A stretch of 44,446 bases of DNA from Escherichia phage vB_EcoM_SHAK7704, in sequence record OR594181; one strand, written 5' to 3'. How positions within the stretch are numbered: position 1 is the stretch's first letter; every line of letters begins with the position of its first letter. Shown here piece by piece: positions 1-44,446 of the stretch. The notes under the pieces were generated by a model. It saw only the letters and a program-made list of their open reading frames with translations, searched no databases and had not been told where the DNA came from. The translations under genes were made by a program, and so were the position numbers.

Positions 1-1896
1 ATGGCTAAGGCAAGAGAATCACAAGCGGAGGCCCTTGCCAGATGGGAGATACTACAGGAGTTACAGCAGACCTTTCCTTACACAGCGGAAGGTTTGCTTC
101 TCTTTGCAGACACAGTTATTCATAACTTAATTGCAGGCAACCCTCATCTGATTCGTATGCAGGCTGATATCTTGAAGTTCCTATTCTACGGACACAAGTA
201 TCGCCTCATCGAAGCGCCTCGTGGTATCGCTAAGACAACACTATCAGCAATCTATACAGTATTCCGTATCATTCATGAACCGCATAAGCGTATCATGGTT
301 GTATCCCAAAACGCCAAGCGAGCAGAGGAAATCGCAGGTTGGGTAGTTAAAATCTTCCGTGGCCTAGACTTTCTTGAGTTTATGCTACCGGACATCTACG
401 CAGGGGACCGTGCCTCAGTTAAGGCATTTGAGATTCATTACACCCTACGTGGCAGTGACAAGTCGCCTTCTGTGTCTTGTTACTCAATCGAAGCAGGTAT
501 GCAGGGTGCGCGTGCAGATATCATCCTAGCAGATGACGTTGAGTCAATGCAGAATGCTCGTACAGCGGCAGGACGTGCCTTGCTTGAGGAACTGACCAAG
601 GAGTTTGAATCTATTAACCAGTTTGGTGATATTATCTACCTTGGTACTCCTCAGAACGTAAACTCTATCTACAATAACCTACCTGCTCGTGGTTACTCTG
701 TTCGTATCTGGACTGCACGTTATCCCTCAGTGGAGCAGGAGCAATGCTATGGTGACTTCCTTGCACCTATGATTGTGCAGGATATGAAGGACAACCCAGC
801 ACTTCGCTCAGGGTATGGCTTGGATGGCAATAGTGGTGCCCCTTGTGCACCTGAAATGTATGATGATGATGTACTGATTGAGAAGGAAATCTCGCAGGGT
901 GCGGCTAAGTTCCAGCTTCAGTTCATGCTTAACACTCGCATGATGGATGCTGACCGCTATCCGCTACGCCTGAACAACCTCATCTTCACTTCATTCGGTA
1001 CAGAGGAAGTCCCTGTGATGCCTACGTGGAGCAATGATTCCATCAATATTATTGGCGATGCACCGAAGTATGGCAATAAGCCTACAGACTTCATGTATCG
1101 ACCTGTGGCTCGCCCGTATGAATGGGGCGCTGTCACTCGTAAGATTATGTATATTGACCCTGCTGGTGGCGGTAAGAATGGGGATGAAACGGGTGTGGCT
1201 ATCGTCTTCCTGCACGGCACATTCATTTACGTGTACCAGTGCTTCGGTGTGCCAGGCGGATATCGCGAATCATCCCTGAATCGCATTGTGCAGGCCGCAA
1301 AGCAGGCGGGTGTTAAAGAGGTATTCATTGAAAAGAACTTTGGTCATGGCGCATTTGAGGCCGTTATAAAGCCATACTTTGAACGAGAGTGGCCTGTGAC
1401 TCTGGAGGAAGATTACGCCACCGGACAGAAAGAGTTGCGTATCATTGAAACACTAGAGCCACTAATGGCGGCCCACAGGCTCATCTTCAACGCAGAGATG
1501 GTCAAGTCTGATTTTGAGTCGGTACAGCGCTATCCGCTTGAACTACGCATGTCATACAGCCTTTTCAATCAAATGTCGAACATCACGATTGAGAAGAACA
1601 GCCTACGACACGATGACCGCTTAGACGCTCTGTATGGTGCTATACGGCAATTAACTTCTCAGATAGACTATGACGAGGTTACACGGATTAATCGCCTCAG
1701 AGCGCAGGAGATGCGCGATTACATCCATGCTATGAACACACCTCACCTCCGTAGGGCAATGCTCTATGGAGATTATGGCACTGAGCGAAGAGTAACCAAC
1801 ACTTCCGTGGCTATGCAGCAAAGAGTATACGGTCAGAATTACAGGAGTAAATCGGCAAGCAGAAATACACTTTCTGCAAGGATTTCAAGGATTTAG
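1..1896 (+). CDS. Terminase large subunit (T7 gp19-like)
   Basis: 631 aa; motifs matching T7 gp19 as recalled (RGIAKT, DKSPSV, ADIILADDVE, IIYLGTPQ, LQFMLN, RYPLRL, HDDRLDAL). Confidence 0.9.
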   Translation: MAKARESQAEALARWEILQELQQTFPYTAEGLLLFADTVIHNLIAGNPHLIRMQADILKFLFYGHKYRLIEAPRGIAKTTLSAIYTVFRIIHEPHKRIMVVSQNAKRAEEIAGWVVKIFRGLDFLEFMLPDIYAGDRASVKAFEIHYTLRGSDKSPSVSCYSIEAGMQGARADIILADDVESMQNARTAAGRALLEELTKEFESINQFGDIIYLGTPQNVNSIYNNLPARGYSVRIWTARYPSVEQEQCYGDFLAPMIVQDMKDNPALRSGYGLDGNSGAPCAPEMYDDDVLIEKEISQGAAKFQLQFMLNTRMMDADRYPLRLNNLIFTSFGTEEVPVMPTWSNDSINIIGDAPKYGNKPTDFMYRPVARPYEWGAVTRKIMYIDPAGGGKNGDETGVAIVFLHGTFIYVYQCFGVPGGYRESSLNRIVQAAKQAGVKEVFIEKNFGHGAFEAVIKPYFEREWPVTLEEDYATGQKELRIIETLEPLMAAHRLIFNAEMVKSDFESVQRYPLELRMSYSLFNQMSNITIEKNSLRHDDRLDALYGAIRQLTSQIDYDEVTRINRLRAQEMRDYIHAMNTPHLRRAMLYGDYGTERRVTNTSVAMQQRVYGQNYRSKSASRNTLSARISRI

Positions 1897-1897
1897 T

Positions 1898-1915
1898 ATT
1901 TACTGGACACTATAG
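1898..1915 (+). promoter_or_regulatory. Phage RNAP promoter ATTTACTGGACACTATAG
   Basis: 18-mer matching the consensus repeated across the window; immediately after the terminase stop. Confidence 0.7.
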
Positions 1916-1991
1916 GAGGAAGACCAAGAGAATAAAGGAATATTATAGGATAATATAGGATTACCTATGTTATATAGGTACACCTTATTAT

Positions 1992-2020
1992 GAGGGTACT
2001 CCTGTACCCTCTTCTTATCT
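1992..2020 (+). terminator. Promoter-proximal hairpin GAGGGTAC-tcct-GTACCCTC followed by T-rich run
   Basis: Perfect 8-bp stem, then ttcttatct; about 80 nt downstream of the promoter +1 and upstream of the 2054 ORF. Confidence 0.4.
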
Positions 2021-2053
2021 ACTTCATTATTTACTAGAAACAAGGAGTATAGA

Positions 2054-2335
2054 ATGGCTAATAATTATAGTGATCAACCACTAACAGGTCGATATGATCG
2101 AAAGCAGGAGACACCTGTAAGTGAAGCGTTAATGCTCCCTGTTGTTACAGAGGAGTCTATTAAGAAGAAAGCCAATGTTATCAATGATGCAACCAAATCT
2201 GGTAAACAGAAAGCATCAATGGTGTGTCGTCCTGTAGGTGGCACTCTTGAGATTGCCATTGCTACTGGCAGCAGAGAGGATGCAGATTGGTTGTCTGTTA
2301 AAATGGATGGCGTTGGTCTTATTACACCGGCTTAA
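2054..2335 (+). CDS. Hypothetical protein, paralog A of a three-gene family
   Basis: 93 aa; AAGGAG RBS; shares an INxxxxSGKQ...IAxGS..D.W domain with the next two ORFs. Confidence 0.6.
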   Translation: MANNYSDQPLTGRYDRKQETPVSEALMLPVVTEESIKKKANVINDATKSGKQKASMVCRPVGGTLEIAIATGSREDADWLSVKMDGVGLITPA

Positions 2336-2351
2336 TAAAGGAGAAGATAAT

Positions 2352-2636
2352 ATGTCTAAGTATGGCGATGCAGGTACTACTGGTCAGGCTTTTCGTGTAA
2401 AAGCAGTACAAACTATTGCAACTGCAATCCCTATGCCTATCGTGGCAGAAGCTGACCTTAAAAAGAAAGATCATCCAATTAATATTGAACACCTATCTGG
2501 TAAGCAGAAAGGTGCTATGGTGGTTGTAGATAAAGGAGATAATAGCCTTTATATTGCTATTGCACGTGGTTCTGCACCAACTGACCAGTGGGATGTAACT
2601 ACTATGGAAGCTGTACCTGTAACACCAGGAGCTTAA
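2352..2636 (+). CDS. Hypothetical protein, paralog B
   Basis: 94 aa from ATG 2352 with AAGGAG RBS; same conserved domain as paralogs A and C. Confidence 0.6.
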   Translation: MSKYGDAGTTGQAFRVKAVQTIATAIPMPIVAEADLKKKDHPINIEHLSGKQKGAMVVVDKGDNSLYIAIARGSAPTDQWDVTTMEAVPVTPGA

Positions 2637-2637
2637 T

Positions 2638-3327
2638 ATGCTGGGAGTAACAGGACAACGCAATAAGAATGTAGCCACCAAAGTGGTGGCTGATTTAGCT
2701 ACTGCTGCTACTGTCGAGGAATTACGAAACCAACATAGCTCTATTAACCGTGCTGACCTTTCTGGTAAACAAGAAGGTTCCGCCGTTATTATTAAGAAAG
2801 AAGATGGGAATTATTCTATCTTTGTAGCAACAGGAAGCAAGCCGACTGATGTGTGGAAAGAGTTGTCTCCAACAATACCAGAGCAAGAGATGCCTGCTGA
2901 ATATATTGATATGATTGATGTTCAAATTCATCAAGATTCTGCAAGCAACTTACATATAGACTCTTCTCGCACTAGTTTAATACAAACACCAATGTGGGAT
3001 ACTGAAGGTGAGTTGTTATTCCGTAATACACTAAGTGCAACATGTTCTTGTACTATTCTTGTTGATGGTGCGTCTGGTGTTCGTCAGGATTTTACTTTTA
3101 AGATTAATGGACTTTTAGAGCAGGAAGAGCAGTATTATGATATTGACACACTTATGTGCTCTATTCACTCTGCAACAACAACTAATGGCCTTACCTTGTG
3201 TATGCCAGATGCTAAAAGTGCAAAGACTAATAAAGTGGTAGTTAAGATCGACACTATGCAGTCATTAGCTATGAGCTTTGATCTTAACTTCCTTGTAGAA
3301 TGGACGTCACCAACGAGGTTACTATAA
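2638..3327 (+). CDS. Hypothetical protein, paralog C (family domain plus ~140-aa C-terminal extension)
   Basis: 229 aa; N-terminal domain homologous to A and B; stop overlaps the endolysin start (TAATG). Confidence 0.6.
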   Translation: MLGVTGQRNKNVATKVVADLATAATVEELRNQHSSINRADLSGKQEGSAVIIKKEDGNYSIFVATGSKPTDVWKELSPTIPEQEMPAEYIDMIDVQIHQDSASNLHIDSSRTSLIQTPMWDTEGELLFRNTLSATCSCTILVDGASGVRQDFTFKINGLLEQEEQYYDIDTLMCSIHSATTTNGLTLCMPDAKSAKTNKVVVKIDTMQSLAMSFDLNFLVEWTSPTRLL

Positions 3328-3671
3328 TGCTAAATCAATACTTCAAGCGTAAAGAATTTGCTTGCCGTTGTGGGTGCGGTACATCCACTGTTGATGCTGA
3401 GTTACTACAGGTAGTAACAGATGTGCGTGAGCACTTTGGTACTCCTGTTGTTATCACTTCTGGTCATCGCTGCGCCAAGCACAATGCTAATGTAGGTGGA
3501 GCTAAGAACTCTATGCATCTTACTGGTAAGGCTGCTGACATTAAGGTACGAGGCATCTTACCTTCTGATGTACATAAGTACCTTACTGATAAGTACCAAG
3601 GCAAGTATGGTATTGGTAAATATACCTCCTTTACTCATATTGATGTACGTGACGGGTGTGCACGATGGTAG
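3327..3671 (+). CDS. Endolysin, zinc peptidase M15-like fold
   Basis: 114 aa from ATG 3327 (ORF track starts at 3300 but has no RBS); SGHRC...H...D...H motif; sits beside the spanins. Confidence 0.7.
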   Translation: MLNQYFKRKEFACRCGCGTSTVDAELLQVVTDVREHFGTPVVITSGHRCAKHNANVGGAKNSMHLTGKAADIKVRGILPSDVHKYLTDKYQGKYGIGKYTSFTHIDVRDGCARW

Positions 3672-3779
3672 GTTGTGTTGCATGGTGTGAACGCATGGTT
3701 GCTAAGGCTTCAGAGGAAGGCAACTATGAAGATTGGCAGAACTACTCAACTTTATTAGCTCAATGGAAAGGGAGATGCA

Positions 3780-3929
3780 ATGAAAAAGCTGTTCAAATCT
3801 AAGAAGGTTGTAGGTGCACTAGTTGCATTGGCAATTGCTCTTGTTTCTGTAGGTCTTGGTGTAGACCTTGGCTCTGGCACGGAATCCTCTGTGACAGATG
3901 TGGTCTGCCAAGTGATCACCTGTGAATAA
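3780..3929 (+). CDS. Small hydrophobic peptide (49 aa), possible lysis regulator
   Basis: Not in the ORF track (under 60 aa); AAGGGAG RBS 9 nt upstream; MKKLFKSKKVVGALVALAIALVSVGLGV hydrophobic segment. Confidence 0.4.
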   Translation: MKKLFKSKKVVGALVALAIALVSVGLGVDLGSGTESSVTDVVCQVITCE

Positions 3930-4143
3930 GTTTCTAGAAGTGCTGGCAGGTCTTATTGGCCTGCTTGTCTCTGCTAAGAAGAAACAAGAAGAGAAGGAGG
4001 CACAAAGTGAAGCGAATCATGCTAGCGACAACCCTGCTGATTGGTTCGCTGATCATTTCAGGGTGTCAGACGGCGTTACCAGAGAATCCAAAGGTGAAGC
4101 CTCTGAAGCCGACGCTTACGGCAGTCTACGAGGTGGACGATAA
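3922..4143 (+). CDS. i-spanin (Rz-like), candidate
   Basis: 73 aa, GTG start; N-terminal transmembrane segment FLEVLAGLIGLLVSA then charged domain; overlaps the o-spanin ORF. Confidence 0.45.
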   Translation: MNKFLEVLAGLIGLLVSAKKKQEEKEAQSEANHASDNPADWFADHFRVSDGVTRESKGEASEADAYGSLRGGR

Positions 4144-4216
4144 AGTCTGCTTCAGTAAGCCTGACGCTACAAAATTAGGTCTGTACATTCTCTCGCTAGA
4201 ACGCGGGTATAATTAA
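4007..4216 (+). CDS. o-spanin (Rz1-like outer-membrane lipoprotein)
   Basis: GTG 4007 with GGAGG 6 nt upstream (alternative ATG 4019); signal peptide with lipobox IISGC; proline-rich mature part; +1 frame over the i-spanin. Confidence 0.6.
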   Translation: MKRIMLATTLLIGSLIISGCQTALPENPKVKPLKPTLTAVYEVDDKVCFSKPDATKLGLYILSLERGYN

Positions 4217-4245
4217 TACATAGTTTTATGTATCAGTGTCTTACG

Positions 4246-4263
4246 ATTTACTGGACACTATAG
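4246..4263 (+). promoter_or_regulatory. Phage RNAP promoter ATTTACTGGACACTATAG
   Basis: Exact consensus 18-mer upstream of the tailspike genes. Confidence 0.7.
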
Positions 4264-4347
4264 AAGAGATAAGATAGTGCCGTTCTTTTGAGCGGCCTAT
4301 TACTAGCCAATCTTCATAGGGAGGATTGGGAAGTAATAGGAGAGTAT

Positions 4348-4683
4348 ATGGCTAAGTTAACTAAACCCAAGACAACTGGCTTACTACATAGAGATACTGT
4401 ACTAGCTACATTATTGGATAATTTACTATCTAAAAGGCGTGTTACATTTGAAGGTGTAGTTCCAAGTGAAGATACTAAAATTGAGATAGAAGTACCTGCA
4501 ACAGGAGATTTAGATTCTTCGTGGGCATCACTTGTATCATTAAGTACACCTACACTTTGTACAGCTTGGATTACTAAAGTGTCAGATACTAGATTAGAAG
4601 TACATGTGTTCCATACAGCACAAGTTGAAATAGACATAGATGTAGATGTTTACATTCTAGGTAAACACATTGTCAGTGCGTAA
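4348..4683 (+). CDS. Short tailspike-like protein (111 aa) in the second-tailspike position
   Basis: ATG 4348 with GGGAGG/AGGAG RBS; sits directly upstream of the endosialidase, where K1-5-type phages carry a second tailspike. Confidence 0.5.
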   Translation: MAKLTKPKTTGLLHRDTVLATLLDNLLSKRRVTFEGVVPSEDTKIEIEVPATGDLDSSWASLVSLSTPTLCTAWITKVSDTRLEVHVFHTAQVEIDIDVDVYILGKHIVSA

Positions 4684-4750
4684 GCACTGCTTTTCGCGCA
4701 ACTTTTCTTAAAGGTTATCATGATGGTAGCCTTTCAGAAAAGGAGGTTAC

Positions 4751-7186
4751 ATGATTCAAAGACTAGGTTCTTCATTAGTTAAATTCAAGAGTAAAATAGC
4801 AGGTGCAATCTGGCGTAACTTGGATGACAAGCTCACCGAGGTTGTATCGCTTAAAGATTTTGGAGCCAAAGGTGATGGTAAGACAAACGACCAAGATGCA
4901 GTAAATGCAGCGATGGCTTCAGGTAAGAGAATTGACGGTGCTGGTGCTACTTACAAAGTATCATCTTTACCTGATATGGAGCGATTCTATAACACCCGCT
5001 TCGTATGGGAACGTTTAGCAGGTCAACCTCTTTACTATGTGAGTAAAGGTTTTATCAATGGTGAACTATATAAAATCACGGATAACCCTTATTACAATGC
5101 TTGGCCTCAAGACAAAGCGTTTGTATATGAGAACGTGATATATGCACCTTACATGGGTAGTGACCGTCATGGTGTTAGTCGTCTGCATGTATCATGGGTT
5201 AAGTCTGGTGACGATGGTCAAACATGGTCTACTCCAGAGTGGTTAACTGATCTGCATCCAGATTACCCTACAGTGAACTATCATTGTATGAGTATGGGTG
5301 TATGTCGCAACCGTCTGTTTGCCATGATTGAAACACGTACTTTAGCCAAGAACGAACTAACCAATTGTGCATTGTGGGATCGTCCTATGTCTCGTAGTCT
5401 GCATCTTACTGGTGGTATCACTAAGGCTGCAAATCAGCGTTATGCAACAATCCATGTACCTGATCACGGATTATTCGTGGGCGATTTTGTTAGCTTCTCT
5501 AATTCTGCGGTAACAGGTGTAACTGGTGATATGAAAGTTGCAACAGTTATAGATAAGGACAACTTCACGGTTCTTACAGCCAATCAGCAGACCTCTGATT
5601 TGAACAATGCTGGAAAGAATTGGCACATGGGCACTTCCTTCCATAAGTCTCCATGGCGTAAGACAGATCTTGGCCTGATACCTCGTGTTACTGAAGTTCA
5701 TAGCTTTGCTACTATTGATAACAATGGCTTTGTTATGGGTTATCACCAAGGCGACGTAGCTCCACGCGAAGTTGGTCTTTTCTACTTCCCTGATGCTTTT
5801 AACAATCCATCTAATTATGTTCGTCGTCAGATACCATCTGAGTACGAACCGGATGCGGCAGAGCCATGCATCAAGTACTATGACGGTGTGTTATACCTTA
5901 TCACTCGTGGTACTCGTGGTGACAGGCTTGGAAGCTCTTTGCATCGCAGTAGAGATATAGGTCAAACTTGGGAGTCACTAAGATTTCCACATAATGTGCA
6001 TCATACTACTTTACCGTTTGCTAAGGTAGGAGATGATCTTATTATGTTTGGTTCAGAACGTGCAGAAAATGAATGGGAAGCAGGTGCACCTGATGATCGT
6101 TACAAGGCATCTTATCCCCGCACCTTCTATGCACGATTGAATGTAAACAAGTGGAGTGCAGATGACATTGAATGGGTTAACATCACAGACCAAATCTATC
6201 AGGGTGACATTGTTAACTCCAGTGTAGGTGTAGGTTCGGTGGTAGTTAAAGATAGTTACATTTACTATATCTTTGGTGGTGAAAACCATTTCAACCCAAT
6301 GACTTATGGTGACAACAAAGATAAAGACCCATTTATTGGACATGGACACCCTACTGATATATACTGCTATAAGATGCAGATTGCAAATGACAGTCGTGTA
6401 TCTCGTAAGTTTACATATGGTGCAACTCCTGGTCAGGCTATACCTACTTTCATGGGTACTGATGGTATTCGCACTATTCCTGCTCCACTTCACTTATCAG
6501 GAGAGGTAGTTGCCGCAGATATGACTGTCGAACACCTTACCTTGAAGGCAAGTACAAGTGCTAATATTCGCTCAGAGATGCTGATGGAAGGTGAATATGG
6601 GTTCATTGGTAAGACTATACCAACGGATAACCCAACCGCCCAACGTGTTATCATCTCTGGTGGAGAGGGTACAGCAGCAGATACCGGTGCGCAAATTACC
6701 TTACATGGAGCAGGTTCTAGCACTTCTAGACGCGCAGTATATAATGCCAATGAGCACTTGTTCCAAAGTGGAGCTATCATGCCATACAATGATAACGTGT
6801 ATCCTGCTGGCGGCCCTCGTAATAGATTCACTACTATCCATCTTACAAGTGACCCTATTATTACGTCTGATGCCACTCATAAGTATGGATCACAAGGTAT
6901 TGATGAGAGTGTACTAAAGGCATGGGGTAAGGTTAGCTTCAAGCAGTACAAGTTGATTGGTGAGATGTCTCGTGGTGTGCACCACACTCACTTTGGTGTA
7001 TTGGCACAAGACATTGTAGCTGCTTTTGCATCCGAAGGGTTAGATGCAATCGACTTCGGCATTGTCTCCTTCGAAGAAGGTCAGTTTGGTGTTAGATATA
7101 GTGAAATCTTAATCTTGGAGGCTGCTTATACTCGCTATCGTTTAGACAAGTTAGAGGAGATGTATGCCACTAATAAAAGCAGTTAA
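4751..7186 (+). CDS. Endosialidase tailspike (endo-N-acetylneuraminidase) with C-terminal intramolecular chaperone domain
   Basis: 811 aa; sequence recalled as near-identical to K1E/K1-5 endosialidase; C-terminal chaperone-domain motifs; strong AAAGGAGG RBS. Confidence 0.9.
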   Translation: MIQRLGSSLVKFKSKIAGAIWRNLDDKLTEVVSLKDFGAKGDGKTNDQDAVNAAMASGKRIDGAGATYKVSSLPDMERFYNTRFVWERLAGQPLYYVSKGFINGELYKITDNPYYNAWPQDKAFVYENVIYAPYMGSDRHGVSRLHVSWVKSGDDGQTWSTPEWLTDLHPDYPTVNYHCMSMGVCRNRLFAMIETRTLAKNELTNCALWDRPMSRSLHLTGGITKAANQRYATIHVPDHGLFVGDFVSFSNSAVTGVTGDMKVATVIDKDNFTVLTANQQTSDLNNAGKNWHMGTSFHKSPWRKTDLGLIPRVTEVHSFATIDNNGFVMGYHQGDVAPREVGLFYFPDAFNNPSNYVRRQIPSEYEPDAAEPCIKYYDGVLYLITRGTRGDRLGSSLHRSRDIGQTWESLRFPHNVHHTTLPFAKVGDDLIMFGSERAENEWEAGAPDDRYKASYPRTFYARLNVNKWSADDIEWVNITDQIYQGDIVNSSVGVGSVVVKDSYIYYIFGGENHFNPMTYGDNKDKDPFIGHGHPTDIYCYKMQIANDSRVSRKFTYGATPGQAIPTFMGTDGIRTIPAPLHLSGEVVAADMTVEHLTLKASTSANIRSEMLMEGEYGFIGKTIPTDNPTAQRVIISGGEGTAADTGAQITLHGAGSSTSRRAVYNANEHLFQSGAIMPYNDNVYPAGGPRNRFTTIHLTSDPIITSDATHKYGSQGIDESVLKAWGKVSFKQYKLIGEMSRGVHHTHFGVLAQDIVAAFASEGLDAIDFGIVSFEEGQFGVRYSEILILEAAYTRYRLDKLEEMYATNKSS

Positions 7187-18350: not shown

Positions 18351-18503
18351 ATGACTAAGTTTACTATGCAAGACCTCATTAAATTACGTGATGAAATAGA
18401 ATCACCGGAAGTTAATACAGAGTTTCACTACATTGATCCACGAGATAAACGAGAGATTCCTGATTATCAGATTGAGACGGAGTTAATGTATGAAGATTAT
18501 TGA
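18351..18503 (+). CDS. Small acidic protein (50 aa)
   Basis: Not in the ORF track; GGGAGG RBS; overlaps the DNA polymerase start. Confidence 0.4.
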   Translation: MTKFTMQDLIKLRDEIESPEVNTEFHYIDPRDKREIPDYQIETELMYEDY

Positions 18504-21036
18504 TTGGAAGAAGGAAGCAGAAGGCCGTATCCTAGTGATGGATGCAGAGGCTAAAGGCCTGCTGAATGCTATCCGCTATGGTCATCGTGAAGATGTGCAT
18601 ATCATTTGCTGCATGGACTTGCTTACTACCGAGGAGTTTCTCTTCTTTGACCCGTATGAGATGCGTGACCCTGAAGCAAGAGAACACCTGAAGGAATGGG
18701 AAGGTCATCAAGATGGTGACTTGGTTGATGGTGTTAACTTCCTGAAGCACTGTGAAGCTATTGTGTCGCAGAACTTCCTAGGGTACGACGGCCTTCTATT
18801 TGAGAAAGCATTCCCTGATATCTGGAAAGGATTTAACTATACCGAGAGACGCGGCAAGGGCAGACTCCGCGCTGACCTGTGTCCGGTACGCGTCATGGAT
18901 ACGCTGGTCATGAGTCGCCTGTTAAACCCCGATAGACGCCTCCCTCCGCAAGCATACGCCAAAGGCATGGGTAACGTCGCCCCTCACTCAATTGAGGCGC
19001 ACGGCATCCGTATAGGCCGTTATAAGCCGGAGAACGAGGATTGGTCTAAGCTAACTGACCACATGGTTCACCGTGTACGGGAGGACGTGGCGATAGGCCG
19101 TGACTTGTTCCTCTGGCTCTTTAACGGGGAATGGATGGAGCACAAACGCCGTGGCGTGAATAAACGCACTGGCCTAGGTATTGAGACAGCCTTCCACATG
19201 GAGTCCATTGTGGCGCTGGAGATGAGCCGTCAGGCCGAGCGTGGATTCCGTCTGGATATAGATAAAGCATTAGCACGATGCGAGGAATTGGACGCTAAGA
19301 TTGATGAGACAGTCGCAGCGTTCCGTCCGCACATGCCTATGCGTATCAAGTCTAAACCTTTTAAACCGGAAGAAAAGAATGAAGTATGCCAACGCGCAAA
19401 TGAGTATGGAGCTAGCAACAATATACCTACTGTCCTTGACCCCTCTCACTTTCTTCACGCAGAGAGACGAGGAGATCGCAAGACAGTATGGAGTGTCACT
19501 ACTAAGTCTGGTGATTGGTCGGCTAGCGTCAAGAAAGACTTTCCTCACCTTAGAGGAAACCGTAATGACACGCCAAGCATCAAGTGGATTGGCGCTTACT
19601 CGCCTGTTACTTTCGAAGAGATTCCCTTGGGTAACAGGGATACAGTTAAGCAAGTGCTTTATGATTATGGATGGAAAGGTGTTGAATTTAACGATACCGA
19701 GCAAGCGCATCTCGATGAGCATGGCGTATTACCCAAGCCTTGGAGTGGGAAGATAAATGAAAAGTCCCTTACTTTATGGCAAGAGAGAGCCGCACGTGAA
19801 GGTAAAACAGTCCCTGATTGGTGCTTGGGTATCGCTGCATGGTACATACTCGTATCCCGTCGTGGTCAGATCCTCAACCGTGGTGACGTTGAAGCCTTCG
19901 ACCAGAAGGGGGTGTGGCCTTCGCAAGCTGGTATACGAAAGTGTCGCGGCCTTGTACCTGTAGCATTTAACAAGGAGTTAGGAATCAATGCGCAGCAATA
20001 CTACGAAAGGTACGGATGCTGGCCTACGTCAGACAAGGATGACGGAGAATGGCGTGTGCCAGCTATTGCTATTAGTATTGGAACTTCTACGTTCCGTATG
20101 CGTCATCGTAACGTGGTTAATATTCCTGCCCGTGGTTTGTATCCTTTACGTGATTTATTCATAGCCGGTAAAGGTAAGCTAATCCTTGGTTGTGATGGTG
20201 CTGGTCTTGAACTACGTGTACTGTCTCACTTCATGAATGACCCTGAATATCAAGATATTGTACTGCATGGTGACATTCACACCCATAATCAAATGAAGGC
20301 TGGTCTTCCTAAGCGTGACATGGCGAAGACATTTATATATGCCTTCCTATATGGGTCTGGTATAGCTAACCTTGCAGCAGTATGTGGTGTTACTGAGGAA
20401 GAAATGGAGGAAGTTGTGGCAAGATTTGAGGTTGAACTACCATCTCTTGCACGCCTTCGTGAGAATGTTATCGCACAAGGTAACAAGTTTGGCTACCTAC
20501 AAGCACCTGATGGTCATTGGGGTCGCATCCGTATGTCTGGTGGTGAACTTAAAGAGCACACTATGCTTAACGTACTACTCCAGATGACGGGTTCTCTGTG
20601 TATGAAATACGCATTGGTCAGAGCGTTTGCAGTGATGCGCAAGGAAGGTGTGGCCTTAGATAGTATGGGAAACCCTTGCGGTATAGCTAACGTGCACGAT
20701 GAAATCCAGATGGAAGTCCCTGAAGATGAGGTCTTGTATCTCAACTACGACTTGCCTTTCACCTTAGAAGGGTTCGAAACAGAGAAGGCTGCTGTGAAAG
20801 CAGTGTTCGATGCAGAGGAGAAACGTGTTCATGTGGATTCTGAAGGACGTATGTGGTCTGCTGCAAATCTCGTTAGCGTTGATGCTGATGCTGGTGTACT
20901 TCATTGCCAGCGTCGTTATCACCGTGCAGGGCATATCATTGCCGATGCAATGACTTGGGCTGGTCATTATTTGAAGATGCGTTGTCCGATGGCAGGTGAG
21001 TATAAGATTGGTGCAAGCTGGAAGGAAACACACTGA
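18490..21036 (+). CDS. DNA polymerase, family A
   Basis: 848 aa; motif A DGAGLELRVLSH, motif B K...FIYAFLYGSG, motif C VHDE. Confidence 0.95.
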   Translation: MKIIDWKKEAEGRILVMDAEAKGLLNAIRYGHREDVHIICCMDLLTTEEFLFFDPYEMRDPEAREHLKEWEGHQDGDLVDGVNFLKHCEAIVSQNFLGYDGLLFEKAFPDIWKGFNYTERRGKGRLRADLCPVRVMDTLVMSRLLNPDRRLPPQAYAKGMGNVAPHSIEAHGIRIGRYKPENEDWSKLTDHMVHRVREDVAIGRDLFLWLFNGEWMEHKRRGVNKRTGLGIETAFHMESIVALEMSRQAERGFRLDIDKALARCEELDAKIDETVAAFRPHMPMRIKSKPFKPEEKNEVCQRANEYGASNNIPTVLDPSHFLHAERRGDRKTVWSVTTKSGDWSASVKKDFPHLRGNRNDTPSIKWIGAYSPVTFEEIPLGNRDTVKQVLYDYGWKGVEFNDTEQAHLDEHGVLPKPWSGKINEKSLTLWQERAAREGKTVPDWCLGIAAWYILVSRRGQILNRGDVEAFDQKGVWPSQAGIRKCRGLVPVAFNKELGINAQQYYERYGCWPTSDKDDGEWRVPAIAISIGTSTFRMRHRNVVNIPARGLYPLRDLFIAGKGKLILGCDGAGLELRVLSHFMNDPEYQDIVLHGDIHTHNQMKAGLPKRDMAKTFIYAFLYGSGIANLAAVCGVTEEEMEEVVARFEVELPSLARLRENVIAQGNKFGYLQAPDGHWGRIRMSGGELKEHTMLNVLLQMTGSLCMKYALVRAFAVMRKEGVALDSMGNPCGIANVHDEIQMEVPEDEVLYLNYDLPFTLEGFETEKAAVKAVFDAEEKRVHVDSEGRMWSAANLVSVDADAGVLHCQRRYHRAGHIIADAMTWAGHYLKMRCPMAGEYKIGASWKETH

Positions 21037-21318
21037 TGGACAGGTTTGATGTTGTTTGCCTATTCTCTATCTTCTTTCTTATATTCCTTATGCTTGCTTG
21101 CTATGGAAGTATGCGATTAGATATACCTGATGAAGAGGAGGGTTACGATTGATGCAAACTGCTTTTATCATTCTTGGGATCATATTATTTATGGTAGTAT
21201 TCTGGGCTTTCTCTGGCATTGACCCAGATTGTGATGGTAACTACGACTGAGTTATACTCAAGGTCACTTACGAGTGGCCTTTATGAATAACTTATTCCTA
21301 CTTATTTTGTCTAACATG

Positions 21319-36677: not shown

Positions 36678-39625
36678 TGGCAATTGAGCGACAAGCAGTA
36701 CAAGGTCTGCCACAAGTGCAGGCCACTTCTCCTAATGTCATGACCTTTGCACCTCAACAAGTGGGAGGTGTGGAGGCTGGCGTGGCTTCTACCTCCGGTA
36801 GTAGATTTATCGAAGACCTTATTCGTGCAGCAAGCAGCGTGGCTGATGTTACCACTGGTATCCTTAATCAGAAGATTGAGGAAGATAAGGTTGTTCAGAT
36901 GGAACGGGCATATAACGGATTAATGCCTTCTGAGGATGCAACTCGTGGTGGCGCTCGTGCTAACATGCTTGTCAAAGCTCAACTGCTAGCTAATGATGAA
37001 GCAGCACGAATGAAAGACATGGCTACTCGTTTCCAAGGGACGGATGACGAGTGGACACAACTTATGGTTGACTCTCGTAATGAGATGCAGAATAAGCTGT
37101 TCCAGCAATACCCTGAGTTGCAAGGTGACAAAGATACTATGCGTATGGTCACTAATGTCTTCCAAGAACAGCAGCCTCAGATTTGGGCTACACGGACCCA
37201 GCATAAACTTGACCGTGAACAAGCAGACCGTGAGGATACCTTTGACGGGCGAGTGGCTTCTACTTGGGATTCTAATATTGACCCTGAAGCTTCTGGCTAT
37301 GCTTTACAGGAACGAATCCGCGAAGGTCTTACTCAAGGATTACTACCTGAACAGATGCACAAGAAGTTAGTCCAGCGAGCAATTTCACTTGCACAAGGCG
37401 GTGATGTTAGCATGGCTGAAGCCCTGAAGTATGTGAAGGACGATAATGGTGTTTCTGTTTATGCTAAGAATCCACAGCTTATCACAGCCATCACTAGTGG
37501 TAATGCAGTTTGGGCTAGGAATAATGTAGCTGATGTAACTCGTATGTCTTTCGAAGTTAAAGAATCATACCTTGCAGGTGATTTAACTGATGAAGAATTG
37601 TTGGAACGAGCACAGCACATTAATAATCTGACAGGTAACTATGTCTTCTCTAATCCAGAACTAGAGGCACTGATGCGCCAAAGGGCTAAGCAGAATGCAG
37701 AGCTAGGTGCAATGCAGGATATGCGACGTGAGCTTTACTCCGACCGCCTGACTGGCTTCCAAGGTAAGACTGATAAAGAGAAGAAGGCTTACATTGATGT
37801 TATCAAACAGGATAGCCAACTTTATGCAGACCAGCAAATCAAACAACGTGGCTTGGATCCTTACAGTCAAGAGGCTGAAGCTATTCGTGGTGCAGTGGAA
37901 GTGCAGCGTCTGCAATTCATGAACTCCAAAGGCTTAGTGGATGACACCTTTGAGTCTCGTATCAAAGCCATGGAATCTATGCTATCGCCTGAGCACTTTG
38001 CCAAGGGCGAACCACAGGAGTTGATGACTATTCGCCAGTTGTGGGAACAGTTGCCAGAAGAGAGCCGAGGTGTCTTTGGTGACACGGTTAATGGCTACAT
38101 GGATAACTACAACACTGCACTACAAATGGGAGAGACACCTTTGCAGGCTGCAAGGTTTGCGCGTGAAGCACAGCAGAAATTCTCTCGTACTGAGAAGGAA
38201 ACCAAGAAGTTCAACTCAGCTATTGGAGATGCGCTGGATGAGGTATCTGGTGCTGGCTGGTTTGATGGTAAAACCGAAGTGTCAGACTTAGGTAAAGCTA
38301 TTGCGGAAGAAGAGTTACGAGCTAAGGCCAATATGTTGTGGTCTAGCGGTATGCGTAACATGGATTCTATCAAGAAGGCTTTAATTACTTGGGGCAATAA
38401 ACGCTACACTCAATCAGAGGATGCAAAGACTTCCGGTGGCTATTTCATTAAAGGTGATTACACTTCTGCATCTGATATGCTTATGTCAGTTGGGAAAGGC
38501 GTAAACCCTACCGATGTACCTCTGGCGCTTGGTAGGTATGTAGAAACACAGATGCCAGAATTGAAGAAGGAGCTTCAAGAGTGGGAAACTAAAGATGATA
38601 TATACATTGATTACAATGAACAGAAAGGAACTTTTGTGATTCGTGCTGGTGCAGCAGGTCGCCCTCTTTCTGGAGTAATCCCTGTAACCTCTTTAGATAC
38701 TACTTCACTACTAGATTCTGCCTATCAGAAGAAAGTAGAGGAACGAGATAAAGGCGAGTATGTTCACCCGTATCGTACAGATATTGGTGCACAAGAGCCT
38801 ATGCCAGCTAAACCAACTGCCAAAGATATTGGTAAATTTGGACTAGCTAACTTCCTCATGTCTTCTGCTTTTGCTTCTGGTGAGAATCTACCTTCTAACT
38901 TCGAGATTAACTATCGAGGTAATATGCAACAATTCTATGACAAGCTAGCTATGGATGAGAATAAAGATAAAGTTGGCTTTAATAAGGCAACTGGAACCTT
39001 TACTCCATATAAAGACGCTCACGGTGAGTCTATCGGTTACGGTCATTTCTTAACGGAAGAAGAGAAGCGAAACGGGTATATTAAGATTGGCGATGAACTA
39101 GTTCCCTATCGAGGGTCTATGTCTCAGCTTACAGAGAGTAAGGCTCGCGCTCTTATGGAGCAAGATGCTAAGAAGCATGTGCCTCCTACTCGTGACTGGA
39201 AGATTCCGTTTGACCAGATGCATCCTGCACAGCAACGTGGCTTGATGGATTTAACCTACAATTTAGGTAAAGGTGGAATCCAGAACTCACCGCGTGCTCT
39301 TGCTGCATTCAAAGCTGGTAAGCTTACGGAAGGCTTTATCGAAATGCTGGGCACTGCATCAAGTGAAGGTAAGCGTATTCCTGGCCTACTGAAGCGACGC
39401 GCTGAGGCATACAATATGGCATCTGCTGGTGGTGTGCCTAAGATTACCGAAGTGGAGACTCGTGAAGATAGCTCCATGTGGGTTAGGTTTGGTGGACCTA
39501 TGCCAGCAGGTTCTGTCTCGGCATGGACTCATAAACGTATTGGCGCGGATGGTTGGTATCAGGTTTATGAGGCTGCACCTACCAAGTTAGCTAAAGGTTC
39601 TAAGGTAGGTAAAGTTAAGTTGTAG
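36677..39625 (+). CDS. Internal virion protein with C-terminal lysozyme-like domain
   Basis: 982 aa; C-terminal region has GESIGYGH in a T4-lysozyme-like context. Confidence 0.7.
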   Translation: MAIERQAVQGLPQVQATSPNVMTFAPQQVGGVEAGVASTSGSRFIEDLIRAASSVADVTTGILNQKIEEDKVVQMERAYNGLMPSEDATRGGARANMLVKAQLLANDEAARMKDMATRFQGTDDEWTQLMVDSRNEMQNKLFQQYPELQGDKDTMRMVTNVFQEQQPQIWATRTQHKLDREQADREDTFDGRVASTWDSNIDPEASGYALQERIREGLTQGLLPEQMHKKLVQRAISLAQGGDVSMAEALKYVKDDNGVSVYAKNPQLITAITSGNAVWARNNVADVTRMSFEVKESYLAGDLTDEELLERAQHINNLTGNYVFSNPELEALMRQRAKQNAELGAMQDMRRELYSDRLTGFQGKTDKEKKAYIDVIKQDSQLYADQQIKQRGLDPYSQEAEAIRGAVEVQRLQFMNSKGLVDDTFESRIKAMESMLSPEHFAKGEPQELMTIRQLWEQLPEESRGVFGDTVNGYMDNYNTALQMGETPLQAARFAREAQQKFSRTEKETKKFNSAIGDALDEVSGAGWFDGKTEVSDLGKAIAEEELRAKANMLWSSGMRNMDSIKKALITWGNKRYTQSEDAKTSGGYFIKGDYTSASDMLMSVGKGVNPTDVPLALGRYVETQMPELKKELQEWETKDDIYIDYNEQKGTFVIRAGAAGRPLSGVIPVTSLDTTSLLDSAYQKKVEERDKGEYVHPYRTDIGAQEPMPAKPTAKDIGKFGLANFLMSSAFASGENLPSNFEINYRGNMQQFYDKLAMDENKDKVGFNKATGTFTPYKDAHGESIGYGHFLTEEEKRNGYIKIGDELVPYRGSMSQLTESKARALMEQDAKKHVPPTRDWKIPFDQMHPAQQRGLMDLTYNLGKGGIQNSPRALAAFKAGKLTEGFIEMLGTASSEGKRIPGLLKRRAEAYNMASAGGVPKITEVETREDSSMWVRFGGPMPAGSVSAWTHKRIGADGWYQVYEAAPTKLAKGSKVGKVKL

Positions 39626-39638
39626 TACCTAACTCAAG

Positions 39639-39662
39639 GCTTGTCTCACATGTGAGACAGGT
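39639..39662 (+). terminator. Palindrome-family hairpin with T-rich tail (copy f)
   Basis: GGCTTGTCTCACATGTGAGACAGG followed by tctttat. Confidence 0.45.
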
Positions 39663-39689
39663 CTTTATGATAGGCACTATGGAGGAATT

Positions 39690-42600
39690 ATGGAACAAGA
39701 CATTAAGACTAATTGGGCTGGATATGTCCAGTCTACTCCTGAGCCGTTTTCTATTGAGGCGGCTCCGGTATCGGCTCCTACGATACGCCAGCGTAATGAG
39801 TTACAAGAGCAAGTTCTTGAAGCTAAAGCTGACGCTGATATTTTAGGTGCTGTAGGTGCTGCCTTCCAGAATGAGTGGTTGGCATTCGGAGGCAAGCGGT
39901 GGTATGACCGTGCCACTGCTGATTTCACACCTCAACCAGACTTTGAGATACAACCTGAGCAACGTGAAGCACTACGTTTCAAATATGGTACGGATATGAT
40001 GCAGACAATCACTGAGGGTGTTCGTTCTGAGGATGAATTGAACTTCCGTATTCAGAATGCTGATGAAGACCTTGAGCGCAATAAGCGCATTGCTCAGGCT
40101 GGCTGGGTTGGCTCTGTGGCGACGATTGGCGCTGCTGTGCTTGACCCTGTGGGATGGGTTGCCTCTATTCCAACCGGTGGTGCCGCTAAAGTTGGACTCG
40201 TAGGACGTGCTGTGCGTGGCGCTATCGCCGCTGGCGTGAGTAATGCCGCTATTGAATCCGTATTGGTCCAAGGTGACATGACTCGTGATTTAGATGACAT
40301 TATGGTAGCACTAGGTTCCGGTATGGCGATGGGTGGCGTTATTGGCGCTGTAGCGCGTGGTAGGGCCACTAAGCTCAGTGAGCAAGGGGATGACAGGGCT
40401 GCGAGCATTGTGCGCAGTGCAGACGCAGGGGACCGCTATGTGCGTGCTGTTGCTGATGATAGTATCGGTGCGATGCGTGTTAAGGGTGAAGAGGTACTCA
40501 CGGAGGGTGCATTTGATGTCTCTAGCAAAGGTGAAGATTTGCTGAAAACCCTACAGCGGGAAGGTAATGCAATTGATATGACCCCTCGCCGCTGGGCCGG
40601 AACTCTGTCTGCCCTTGGTACTGTCGTACATTCCTCTCAGGATGCAAGTGTACGCGGCCTTGGTGCTCGCCTGTTTGAGTCCCCCCAAGGCTTAGGTATG
40701 CAGAAGGCATCTGCTAGTCTCATGCAGAATACTAACTTGAACCGTCTGAAATCTGCTGATATGAATCGTTTCAACGATGGGTTCGATTTATGGCTCAAAG
40801 AGAATAATATCAACCCGGTTGCAGGTCATACTAACTCTCACTATGTGCAGCAATATAATGAGAAGGTATGGGAAGCTGTACGCATCGGTATGGACGAGTC
40901 TACGCCTAAGTCTATCCGTATGGCAGCAGAGGGGCAGCAAGCTATGTATCGTGAAGCATTAGCATTACGTCAACGCTCTGGTGAAGCTGGGTTTGAAAAG
41001 GTTAAAGCAGATGATAAGTACATGCCTGATATTTTTGACAGTATGAAGGCTCGTCGTCAATTCAGTATGCACGATAAAGAGGACATCATTGAGTTATTCT
41101 CTCGTGCATACCAGAATGGTTCTCGTAAGGTTCCAAAGGAAGTGGCTGATGATATTGCACGAGCACAAGTAAACCGCGTTGCTGATGCCACCTTGACCGG
41201 ACAGCTTAGCTTTGAAAAGGCTATGTCTGGTCAAACCAAAGCAGAATATGAAGCACTCATGCGCAAAGCAGGCTTTAGTGATGAAGAGATTGAAAAGATG
41301 GTAGAAGCTCTGGATAATAAAGAAACCAGAGATAATATCTCTAACCGAGCTAAGATGAGTTTAGGCTTAGATGTTACTCAAGAGTACAATGGTATTCGTA
41401 TGCGTGACTTTATGAACACTAACGTGGAAGAGTTAACAGATAACTACATGAAGGAAGCGGCAGGTGGTGCTGCCTTGGCTCGTCAAGGTTTCTCTACCTA
41501 TCAGGCTGCACTTAATGCAATTGATCTTGTAGAGCGAAATGCACGAAATGCAGCTAAAGATACAAAAGCACACGCACAATTTGAAGCGGAGTCGGCTAAG
41601 ATCCGTCAATCAGAGCCTGATTACAAGAAGGCACAAGAGAAGATTGAAGAGTTAAAGAAGCGACTTAAATTGAAAGAGAAAGATGAAGCAGCAGGTCTGG
41701 CTATTGATGAAGAAATCCGTCAGATGCGAGAGGGGCTTCGCTTGATTATGGGTAAATCTATCGATTCAAACCCACAAGATTTGTCTACTAAAATGCTGCG
41801 TCGTGGGCGTGACATTACAGGCGTACTTCGCTTAGGTCAGATGGGCTTCGCACAGCTAGGTGAACTTGCTAACTTCATGGGTGAGTTTGGTATTGCTGCC
41901 ACCACTATGGCTTTAGGTAAGCAATTCCGCTTCACCTCTAAGGCGTTGCGTAATGGCGATGGCTTCTTTCGAGATAAGAATTTAGCTGAGGTTGAGCGAA
42001 TGGTAGGTTACATTGGTGAAGACAACTGGCTAACAACTAAGGGTGCGCGTCCAGATGAGTTTGGTGATGTAACCACAGTGCGAGGTATGATGGCCCATTT
42101 TGACCAGTCCATGAACTCTATACGACGTGCTCAGACAAACCTATCCCTCTTCCGCATGGCACAGGGTTCTCTGGAGCGAATGACCAATAGGCAAATAGCT
42201 TTGTCTTTCATTGACCACCTTGAAGGCAAGAAGATTATCCCTCAGAAGAAACTGGAGGAACTTGGTCTTACTCAGGAGTTCATGACTAACCTACAGAAGC
42301 ACTATGATGCTAACTCTAAAGGTTCTGGCTTGCTTGGCTTTGATACAATGCCTTATGCCATGGGTGAAACTTTAGCTAATGCTATTCGTCGTAAGTCAGG
42401 TCTAATTATCCAACGTAACTTCATTGGTGATGAAGGTATCTGGATGAACAAAGCACTAGGTAAGACATTTGCACAGCTTAAGTCATTCTCTCTTGTATCT
42501 GGTGAGAAGCAATTTGGTCGAGGGATTCGACACGATAAAATTGGTCTTGCTAAGAAGACAGCTTACGGGTTTGCTTTGGGTTCAATAGTGTATGCGGCAA

Positions 42601-43969: not shown

Positions 43970-44164
43970 ATGATTAACTCCGAACTGGTAGATAGTGGTG
44001 TGAAGCTTGCGCCACCTGCATTAGTCTCAGGTGGGTACTTCCTCGGTATCAGTTGGGATAATTGGGTGTTAATAGCAACATTCATTTATACCGTGTTGCA
44101 AATTGGAGACTGGTTTTATACCAAGATTAAACTATGGAGGAAGAATCGTGAGCGTCCACAATAA
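43970..44164 (+). CDS. Holin (T7 gp17.5-like, class II)
   Basis: 64 aa; WDNWVLIATFIYTVLQIG resembles T7 gp17.5 LNEWFYVAAIAYTVVQIG as recalled; AAGGAGG RBS. Confidence 0.75.
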   Translation: MINSELVDSGVKLAPPALVSGGYFLGISWDNWVLIATFIYTVLQIGDWFYTKIKLWRKNRERPQ

Positions 44165-44446
44165 ACATGCAGCTACAGAAGATGAGGTTGGCATCCTGCA
44201 TGGTGCTATTACCAAAATCTTTAATAAGAAAGCACAGGCAATACTGGACACTATAGAAGAAGACCCAGATGCAGCACTGCATTTAGTCTCTGGTAAAGAT
44301 ATTGGAGCTATGTGTAAGTGGGTTCTTGATAATGGTATTACCGCTACACCTGCTGCACAGCAGGAGGAGTCCAAGCTATCTAAGCGCCTCAAGGCTATCC
44401 GAGAGGCATCAAGTGGCAAGATTATTCAATTCACTAAGGAGGATTG
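44148..44446 (+). CDS. Terminase small subunit (3' end wraps to position 1)
   Basis: GTG 44148 with GGAGG 7 nt upstream; ORF runs to the window end; last two bases tg plus first base a make a TGA stop overlapping the terminase ATG. Confidence 0.65.
   Translation, partial: MSVHNKHAATEDEVGILHGAITKIFNKKAQAILDTIEEDPDAALHLVSGKDIGAMCKWVLDNGITATPAAQQEESKLSKRLKAIREASSGKIIQFTKED
44259..44276 (+). promoter_or_regulatory. Phage RNAP promoter variant CAATACTGGACACTATAG, intragenic
   Basis: Conserved -12 to +1 region; encodes ...LDTIEE... of the small terminase. Confidence 0.5.

Follow-up and report, generated by a model that had tools for sequence, protein, structure and literature searches.

The lysis region of Escherichia phage vB_EcoM_SHAK7704 (sequence record OR594181) contains, downstream of the endolysin gene, an open reading frame (ORF) for a strongly hydrophobic peptide of 49 amino acids, which raises the question of whether this ORF is a gene and what its product does. 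We analysed the whole stretch of 44,446 nucleotides, here called the window, which is the genome of an SP6/K1-5-like podophage (Vectrevirus). We conclude that the ORF is a genuine gene, and we tentatively favour a reading in which the 49-residue protein, anchored in the inner membrane, is a partner in the step of lysis that disrupts the outer membrane (the spanin step). Positions 3665-4216 of the window match Escherichia phage vB_EcoA_fTuEco01 with 100% identity; K1-5 is ~91% identical to the window across the lysis region. The gene and its signals are:

3780..3929, plus strand: the 49-residue gene (gp44 of K1-5 and K1E; gp47, gene 56, of SP6), with ATG at 3780 and TAA at 3927-3929; PHROG 4712.
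3770..3774, plus strand: Shine-Dalgarno-like GGGAG, 5 bases upstream of the ATG.
3807..3863, plus strand: predicted transmembrane helix VVGALVALAIALVSVGLGV, residues 10-28, from hydropathy (AlphaFold2 (AF2) helix 8-26), with A13 invariant.
3906..3923, plus strand: codons of the C43-x4-C48 motif in the predicted periplasmic C-terminus, without variation among the 18 aligned family sequences.

A first-pass annotation, made from the sequence alone, had described a good ribosome-binding site and a strongly hydrophobic segment in the product, MKKLFKSKKVVGALVALAIALVSVGLGVDLGSGTESSVTDVVCQVITCE, and both descriptions hold. GGGAG stands 5 bases before the ATG, and it is also marked for gp44 of K1-5 and K1E in the supplement of the 2018 spanin census by Kongari et al. 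(PMC6139136). Residues 10-28 form an uncharged segment of 19 residues with a mean Kyte-Doolittle hydropathy of 2.72, in which G12, A13, A16, A20, S23, G25 and G27 are small. The lysine-rich N-terminal flank carries charges of +5/-0 and the 21-residue acidic C-terminal tail 0/-4; based on the positive-inside rule applied to these flanks, the 49-residue protein is unambiguously predicted to be a type II, single-pass membrane protein with the N terminus in the cytoplasm and the C terminus outside (N-in/C-out). The AF2 model, in which the helix spans residues 8-26, is of low confidence (predicted local distance difference test score (pLDDT) 65, and ~55 in the tail), and this model and that of the 73-residue protein encoded downstream were used as weak support for helix boundaries only. 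The PHROG 4712 profile matched residues 1-49 of the protein over a 50-position profile (E 3e-27); searches of Pfam and NCBIfam gave no meaningful match for this protein or for the 45- and 73-residue proteins encoded on either side of it.

By size and hydrophobicity alone, the ORF does not stand out from chance. The window contains 210 ORFs of at least 45 residues, and more than 20 ORFs have equally hydrophobic 19-residue segments; these many spurious ORFs, equally long or equally hydrophobic, are what would speak for a chance ORF and no gene at 3780..3929. The first-pass annotation had let the standing of the ORF depend on conservation in K1E, K1-5 and SP6, and it is conserved in all three: tblastn returned 89 phage records in which identity to the 49-residue protein is 80% or higher, these three phages included. 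We calculated the ratio of nonsynonymous to synonymous differences per site (pN/pS) by the Nei-Gojobori method in all three frames of a 437-nt block aligned from 25 distinct relatives:

3803-3921 (49-residue gene only): 49-residue frame 0.17; 73-residue frame 1.63; lipoprotein frame 3.66.
3930-4006 (the "intergenic" gap): 49-residue frame 5.3; 73-residue frame 0.26; lipoprotein frame 2.8.
4007-4066 (lipoprotein signal peptide): 49-residue frame 1.59; 73-residue frame 0.10; lipoprotein frame 0.80.
4067-4143: 49-residue frame 1.54; 73-residue frame 0.97; lipoprotein frame 0.50.
4144-4213 (lipoprotein only): 49-residue frame 1.09; 73-residue frame 14.18; lipoprotein frame 0.11.

Thus, the 49-residue ORF, conserved in 89 records and with a pN/pS of 0.17 in its own frame, is a genuine gene under purifying selection in that frame only. 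A chance ORF is refuted by this value, as the other two frames give 1.6 and 3.7; moreover, the ribosome-binding site is conserved, and homologs down to ~30% identity keep the length and the invariant residues. We consider the likelihood of a chance ORF to be negligible.

The genes that flank the 49-residue gene are as described by the first-pass annotation, i.e. the endolysin gene lies on one side and two overlapping ORFs on the other:

3327..3671, plus strand: endolysin, Peptidase_M15_3 (PF08291, E 1e-32).
3922..4143, plus strand: 73-residue gene (phrog_9219), with a GTG start within the last codons of the 49-residue gene, under purifying selection.
4007..4216, plus strand: outer-membrane lipoprotein of the outer-membrane spanin (o-spanin) type, with a GTG start after AAGGAGG; phrog_8971, "Rz-like spanin", E 9e-39.

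The 73-residue gene starts without a Shine-Dalgarno sequence of its own, and its product combines a hydrophobic helix at the N terminus with a charged helix and the motif DNPADWFADHFRV. With own-frame pN/pS values of 0.26 (3930-4006), 0.10 (4007-4066) and 0.97 (4067-4143), this ORF is a real gene of which the tail beyond ~residue 48 is unconstrained, and this fits the variable length of its homologs (61-73 residues) and the disordered tail in the AF2 model, which is of low confidence (pLDDT 61). The lipoprotein has the lipobox IISG/C, a mature part of 50 residues and the conserved C terminus LGLYILSLERGY, and its pN/pS is 0.11 in the non-overlapped part. The 73-residue gene is unannotated in the K1-5 and K1E records, and the first-pass annotation's overlapping spanin pair is better founded than these annotations: the first two of the pN/pS values above support the 73-residue ORF, and the 73-residue family and the same lipoprotein family occur together in unrelated Vibrio myoviruses.

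The lipoprotein gene starts 77 nt past the 49-residue gene and shares its strand and transcription unit, and the 73-residue gene fills the gap. A start could be assigned at 11 junctions, and in each of them the stop codon of the 49-residue gene either shares bases with the start codon of the module gene that follows or directly adjoins it (GTGAATAA, TAATG, ATGA). In some lineages of the 73-residue family the N-terminal anchor is weak or amphipathic (MIKALLEVLAILLRAIERKQ in ECBP5, LLRILAGLIDLLKSY in Proteus phages); we speculate that such anchors leave room for a solid anchor provided by the 49-residue protein.

The family of the 49-residue protein is small. A word-indexed protein search returned only close relatives of at least 76% identity, and when a profile was run exhaustively against 1.84 billion representatives just 18 members were added, from which we conclude that few proteins of the PHROG 4712 type exist. 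Most of these 18 matches are 47-60 residues long, and one is a stretch within a protein of 5348 residues. In an alignment of 18 sequences, down to 30% identity, K6, A13, C43 and C48 are invariant and K9 is nearly so; across the family, the C-x4-C motif is missing only in P0087 and in the divergent member on the SP6-like contig L063 (IMGVR_UViG_2706795819_000001).

Family members were found in three genomic contexts. First, in Autographiviridae of the SP6, ECBP5, VL73, Proteus and Klebsiella types, the 49-residue gene is followed by the 73-residue gene and a LERGY-type lipoprotein gene. Second, in the Vibrio T7-like phages ICP3, N4 and VP4, a 47-residue member is encoded between the small- and large-terminase genes, which for ICP3 is the position of T7 18.5/18.7 (Rz/Rz1). 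The ICP3 protein matches PHROG 4712 with E 7e-23, and its Smith-Waterman score against the 49-residue protein is ~6.4 standard deviations above segment-preserving shuffles; BLASTP of the two proteins gave no alignment. Its gene is coupled by TAATG to that of a 65-residue lipoprotein of an unrelated family (phrog_10167), and the 6.7-kb ICP3 stretch that was read contains no 73-residue-type ORF and no other membrane-anchored candidate, orf49 being without a hydrophobic segment. Third, in L063 (2038..2641), an ICP3-type 38-residue lipoprotein precedes the M15 endolysin and a cysteine-free 45-residue PHROG-4712-like protein follows it, with no 73-residue gene, LERGY-type lipoprotein or other spanin candidate nearby. 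The mature part of the L063 lipoprotein has 22 residues and resembles the N terminus of the ICP3 lipoprotein; together with a tail of ~19 residues in the family member, this gives ~41 periplasmic residues.

The P2-like Vibrio myoviruses X29 and PVP-XSN encode a 58-residue member of the 73-residue family (E 2e-4 and 6e-7 with a profile built without them, in a search space of one million) and a LERGY-type lipoprotein in an amidase-holin cassette, and the whole X29 genome has no member of the 49-residue family (best E 0.4). In total, the X29/PVP-XSN, ICP3 and L063 contexts suggest that two modules can be distinguished: the 49-residue family, with an ICP3-type lipoprotein where present, and the 73-residue family with the LERGY-type lipoprotein. 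The window contains the 49-residue gene plus the second of these modules.

Several observations point to the 49-residue protein being the inner-membrane-anchored partner in the spanin step, a reading that we hold to be somewhat short of an even chance. As expected for an inner-membrane spanin (i-spanin), the protein has a predicted N-terminal transmembrane helix in the N-in/C-out orientation (helix 10-28, flanking charges +5/-0 and 0/-4), and an o-spanin lipoprotein gene lies nearby in the lysis cassette, with the 73-residue gene between the two. The 49-residue gene is under purifying selection in its own frame only, is transcribed late, in one unit with the endolysin and lipoprotein genes, and is coupled to the next module gene at all 11 junctions mentioned above; its ICP3 relative occupies the Rz/Rz1 slot, coupled to a lipoprotein; and in L063 a family member and an ICP3-type lipoprotein flank the endolysin. 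A bona fide T7-type holin is present elsewhere in the genome. Moreover, the tail carries two invariant cysteines that are predicted to be periplasmic; lambda Rz and Rz1 also have periplasmic cysteines, which form intermolecular disulfides. Finally, independent curators made the same i-spanin call: it is found in the supplement of PMC6139136, in the record of phage LL11 (MH729818) and in the SP6 record AY288927.2 (gene 56). Because the 73-residue/lipoprotein module occurs without the 49-residue family elsewhere, the 49-residue protein of this phage is more likely to be a co-subunit or a second anchor than the sole i-spanin.

If so, the 49-residue protein would build up in the inner membrane, where DsbA would oxidise its cysteine pair to give a homodimer or a small loop. 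The tail would then touch the 50-residue mature lipoprotein, probably together with the co-translated 73-residue protein. Once the T7-type holin (43970..44164) had let out the M15 endolysin and the murein had been destroyed, the complex could destabilise or fuse the outer membrane. As for a heteromeric disulfide between the tail of the 49-residue protein and a lipoprotein cysteine, we rejected it as a general rule: the ICP3-type lipoproteins have no extra cysteine, and neither has that of X29.

A number of points weigh against an i-spanin-like role. The tail has only 21 residues, where an i-spanin would need a periplasmic domain long enough to span the periplasm with the o-spanin, and it has no coiled coil; the authors of the census themselves listed gp44 without a coiled coil and flagged it with "Too small?" and "Too short" (PMC6139136). 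This tail and the 50-residue lipoprotein would reach ~24 nm only when fully extended, and the L063 pair, with its ~41 residues, would be unable to bridge a periplasm of ~20 nm. That the 73-residue family and the LERGY-type lipoprotein occur together in X29 and PVP-XSN, in X29 without the 49-residue family, implies that the lipoprotein of the window has another, probably cognate, partner, and for UAB_Phi78 it is the homolog of the 73-residue protein, not of the 49-residue protein, that was named i-spanin (PMC6139136). Stop/start overlaps are common in compact phage genomes, and the coupling of the genes is therefore weak evidence. The cytoplasmic motif, with K6 invariant and K9 nearly so, is strongly conserved, which is unexpected for an i-spanin. 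The AF2 model of the protein reaches a pLDDT of only 65, and literature searches on gp44/gp47 and the family found no experiment on any PHROG 4712 member.

The shortness of the periplasmic parts would be accommodated if PHROG 4712 was a distinct class of lysis proteins, i.e. inner-membrane peptides of 45-49 residues that are not shortened Rz-type i-spanins and that have a non-canonical role in disruption or its control. We regard this as quite unlikely. If it is true, members of the class can pair with small outer-membrane lipoproteins that are not related to one another, joined by the 73-residue protein in a three-gene unit in SP6-like phages; the combined periplasmic parts (~41 residues in L063) being too short, the mechanism would be other than a canonical spanin bridge, e.g. 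action only after murein collapse or regulation of the 73-residue/lipoprotein spanin.

The first-pass annotation had considered an antiholin, a pinholin-type second holin or a signal-peptide-like regulator of the endolysin, and had placed the clear holin 40 kb away, just upstream of the small terminase gene. The holin itself is confirmed:

43970..44164, plus strand: T7-family holin (gp17.5 type; PF10746, E 3e-27; phrog_920), overlapping the start of the small-terminase gene at 44148.

The distance is an artefact of circular permutation. The small-terminase ORF (44148..44446) wraps the junction, its terminal TG and the first A of the window forming a TGA stop, and this A is also that of the ATG of terL; thus, the window is a complete genome opened at the terL start codon. 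Once its ends are joined, the endolysin start follows the holin stop at a distance of ~3.6 kb, which is taken up by the terminase genes and three small genes, as in SP6 and LL11; a layout with separated holin and endolysin genes had already been described for SP6-like phages (PMC4640515).

The 49-residue protein could still be a component of the holin system, i.e. a second holin, an antiholin or a timing regulator that oligomerises in the inner membrane or binds the T7-type holin to tune triggering, with the 73-residue protein and the lipoprotein forming a complete spanin. The protein is small, with a single helix rich in small residues and an invariant A13; its gene lies in the lysis cassette, 109 nt past the endolysin; RefSeq and PHROG 4712 label it "holin"; and the 73-residue/lipoprotein module works without the 49-residue family in X29-type phages. 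A T7-type holin is also present in every family-bearing lineage in which the holin region was read (the window, SP6, LL11 and ICP3). However, the label could be traced to no experiment, no Pfam or NCBIfam holin model matched the protein, and a dual-start arrangement is lacking. Similarly, there is no charged cytoplasmic C-terminal domain; rather, the C terminus is acidic and predicted to be periplasmic, and the basic part is N-terminal. The gene adjoins the holin gene in none of the window, SP6, LL11 and ICP3, being 4.06 kb past the holin stop in genome order, whereas an antiholin would be expected to arise from an alternative start of the holin gene or from a gene next to it whose product binds the holin. 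Moreover, a role in the holin system leaves the invariant cysteine pair and the constant coupling to lipoprotein modules unexplained, and it would deprive the ICP3 lipoprotein in the Rz/Rz1 slot of an inner-membrane partner. We consider such a role doubtful; an antiholin or second holin, although in agreement with the RefSeq and PHROG label, is disfavoured for a gene that is never next to the holin, is coupled to a lipoprotein module and encodes two invariant cysteines.

The proposals of a pinholin and of an endolysin regulator are disfavoured. The endolysin has no N-terminal signal or signal-arrest-release (SAR) segment, its most hydrophobic 17-residue window having a hydropathy of 0.75 and containing D and E, so that a canonical holin is needed, and a T7-type holin is present. 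We also hold it to be highly improbable that the protein is a secreted peptide released from a signal-peptide-like leader, or that it controls export of the endolysin. The n-region, the h-region and the small residues that follow (VGLG) do resemble a signal peptide, but there is no signal or SAR segment to regulate, the mature product would have just ~20 residues, and K6 and A13 in the "signal" part are conserved as strongly as the tail, which is unusual for a cleaved leader and argues for a retained anchor.

Finally, the protein might have a mainly non-lysis role in the membrane, e.g. in superinfection exclusion or envelope modification, and have come to lie in the late operon through genome compaction. 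Every function given to it is putative, its cytoplasmic N-terminal motif is highly conserved, and its tail falls short of what a canonical spanin needs, all of which would be compatible with such a role. Yet the gene lies in the lysis cassettes of three separate lineages, coupled each time to lysis-type genes, and it has a late promoter in common with the endolysin; we find a non-lysis role improbable.

A partner in the spanin step is also what part of the public record proposes. In RefSeq and PHROGs the 49-residue gene is a "holin"; in the CPT annotation of LL11 (MH729818) its homolog is a "putative I-spanin"; and in the updated SP6 record AY288927.2 it is named i-spanin, gene 56. The 2018 census listed gp44 of K1-5, K1E and SP6 as a "separated" i-spanin with a "mini i-spanin" role, and for UAB_Phi78 it gave the i-spanin role, with the architecture "overlapped", to the 69-residue homolog of the 3922..4143 product (PMC6139136). 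K1-5, K1E, SP6 and UAB_Phi78 all encode both families, and we conclude that, from one homologous cassette to another, the census was not consistent in which protein it named i-spanin. In addition, the "o-spanin" feature of AY288927.2 at 39607..39804 is in the frame of the 72-residue ORF and not of the lipoprotein, which is at 39670..39880 (5164..5361 and ~5228..5437, respectively, in the coordinates of L003, the AY288927.2 sequence).

The 49-residue gene is thus not new. The first-pass annotation had called it unlisted, which is true only of the ORF list that it had been given: K1-5 and K1E have it as gene 44 and SP6 as gp47, and it was annotated in 2004-era genomes, is included in PHROGs (PHROG 4712) and was discussed in the 2018 census. 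What we add is frame-resolved evidence of selection on the 49- and 73-residue genes, the inconsistency of the i-spanin calls, the picture of two modules and the origin of the "40 kb split". Phages like SP6, K1E and K1-5 serve widely as models and in therapy, and the annotation of their lysis cassettes is inconsistent: the 49-residue gene is given as holin, i-spanin or hypothetical, and the 73-residue gene is missing from K1-5 and K1E. Establishing which of the tiny proteins make up the machinery that disrupts the outer membrane would correct many annotations, and would also test whether a spanin can function when its periplasmic parts fall far short of Rz/Rz1 in length.

The remaining features of the lysis block are:

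3665..3802, plus strand: gene for a 45-residue, cysteine-containing soluble protein (SP6 gene 55; phrog_1312, E 1e-17).
1905..1918, plus strand: phage-RNA-polymerase promoter core with one mismatch, opening the transcription unit with the lysis genes.
4253..4266, plus strand: next phage promoter core, just 3' of the stop of the o-spanin-type lipoprotein gene, closing the lysis unit.

The start of the 45-residue gene overlaps the endolysin stop (ATGGTAG), its end overlaps the start of the 49-residue gene, and its own-frame pN/pS is 0.20. All four small genes after the endolysin, i.e. those for the 45-, 49- and 73-residue proteins and the lipoprotein, are real. The 45-residue protein, the family of which (phrog_1312) is of unknown function, has a CxxWC motif and four cysteines; its gene accompanies the 49-residue gene in SP6-, ECBP5- and Proteus-type phages and is absent from ICP3 and L063, and in one metagenomic relative (L007/L036) it is shortened by a stop codon.

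The scan for phage promoter cores gave 11 matches compared with 0.32 expected by chance, and positions 2054..4216, bordered by the promoters at 1905 and 4253, form one late transcription unit. In a scan of 1800-4800, sigma-70 promoters and terminators were no more frequent than in shuffled sequence. A perfect phage promoter core, GGACACTATAGAAG, lies at 44246..44259 within the small-terminase coding sequence, ~100 nt past its start. Between terL and the endolysin gene, three consecutive paralogs (2054..2335, 2352..2636 and 2638..3327) all match phrog_2725, the enzymatic label of which, "acetyl-CoA acetyltransferase", looks doubtful for proteins of ~93 residues; the third is longer (229 residues, phrog_32357), and the number of paralogs varies among relatives. 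Elsewhere in the window, directly 3' of an 848-residue ORF (18490..21036), two tiny hydrophobic ORFs of 38 and 33 residues overlap in tandem (21036..21152 and 21149..21250; phrog_15860 and phrog_4539, both of unknown function). Both end acidic, in G-Y-D or N-Y-D, and the 38-residue ORF has a lipobox-like LMLAC.

Among known systems, the closest are gp44 of K1-5, gp44 of K1E and gp47 (gene 56) of SP6, which are the same gene, with 98%, 92% and 88% identity, respectively, of equal length and in the same position after the M15 endolysin. Nothing substantive differs except the labels in the records, which read unnamed numbered gene or "gp44 protein", "holin" and "i-spanin". The 47-residue protein of Vibrio phages ICP3, N4, VP3 and VP4 (orf51 region; the "mini i-spanin" family of VP4 in PMC6139136) belongs to the same PHROG 4712, and it shares with the 49-residue protein the basic N terminus, the helix, a GVDL motif, the C-terminal C-x4-C and the coupling to a lipoprotein. 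By contrast, it is only ~30% identical, lies in the T7 18.5/18.7 slot, is paired with an unrelated lipoprotein (phrog_10167) and is not accompanied by a 73-residue-type gene. The 69-residue "overlapped i-spanin" of UAB_Phi78 (PMC6139136) is the homolog of 3922..4143, in the same cassette and with the same proposed role with the same o-spanin family; it is of a different family (phrog_9219), and thus a neighbour and not a homolog of the 49-residue protein.

T4 holin T (class III), T4 antiholin RI and pinholin S21 are likewise small membrane proteins of phage lysis. Holin T has the N-in/C-out topology predicted for the 49-residue protein; T and RI have large periplasmic domains, and S21 has two transmembrane helices, its endolysin being of the SAR type. 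The window, by contrast, encodes a soluble endolysin and a T7-type holin, and the 49-residue protein has no sequence similarity to S21, T or RI. Lambda Rz and T7 gp18.5 resemble it in the single N-in/C-out pass, the periplasmic cysteines and the adjoining lipoprotein gene, and PHROG and Pfam searches detected no sequence similarity to Rz-type i-spanins. The periplasmic domains of the latter comprise ~100-130 residues and are largely helical or coiled-coil (tables of PMC6139136), whereas that of the 49-residue protein comprises 21 residues and has no coiled coil.

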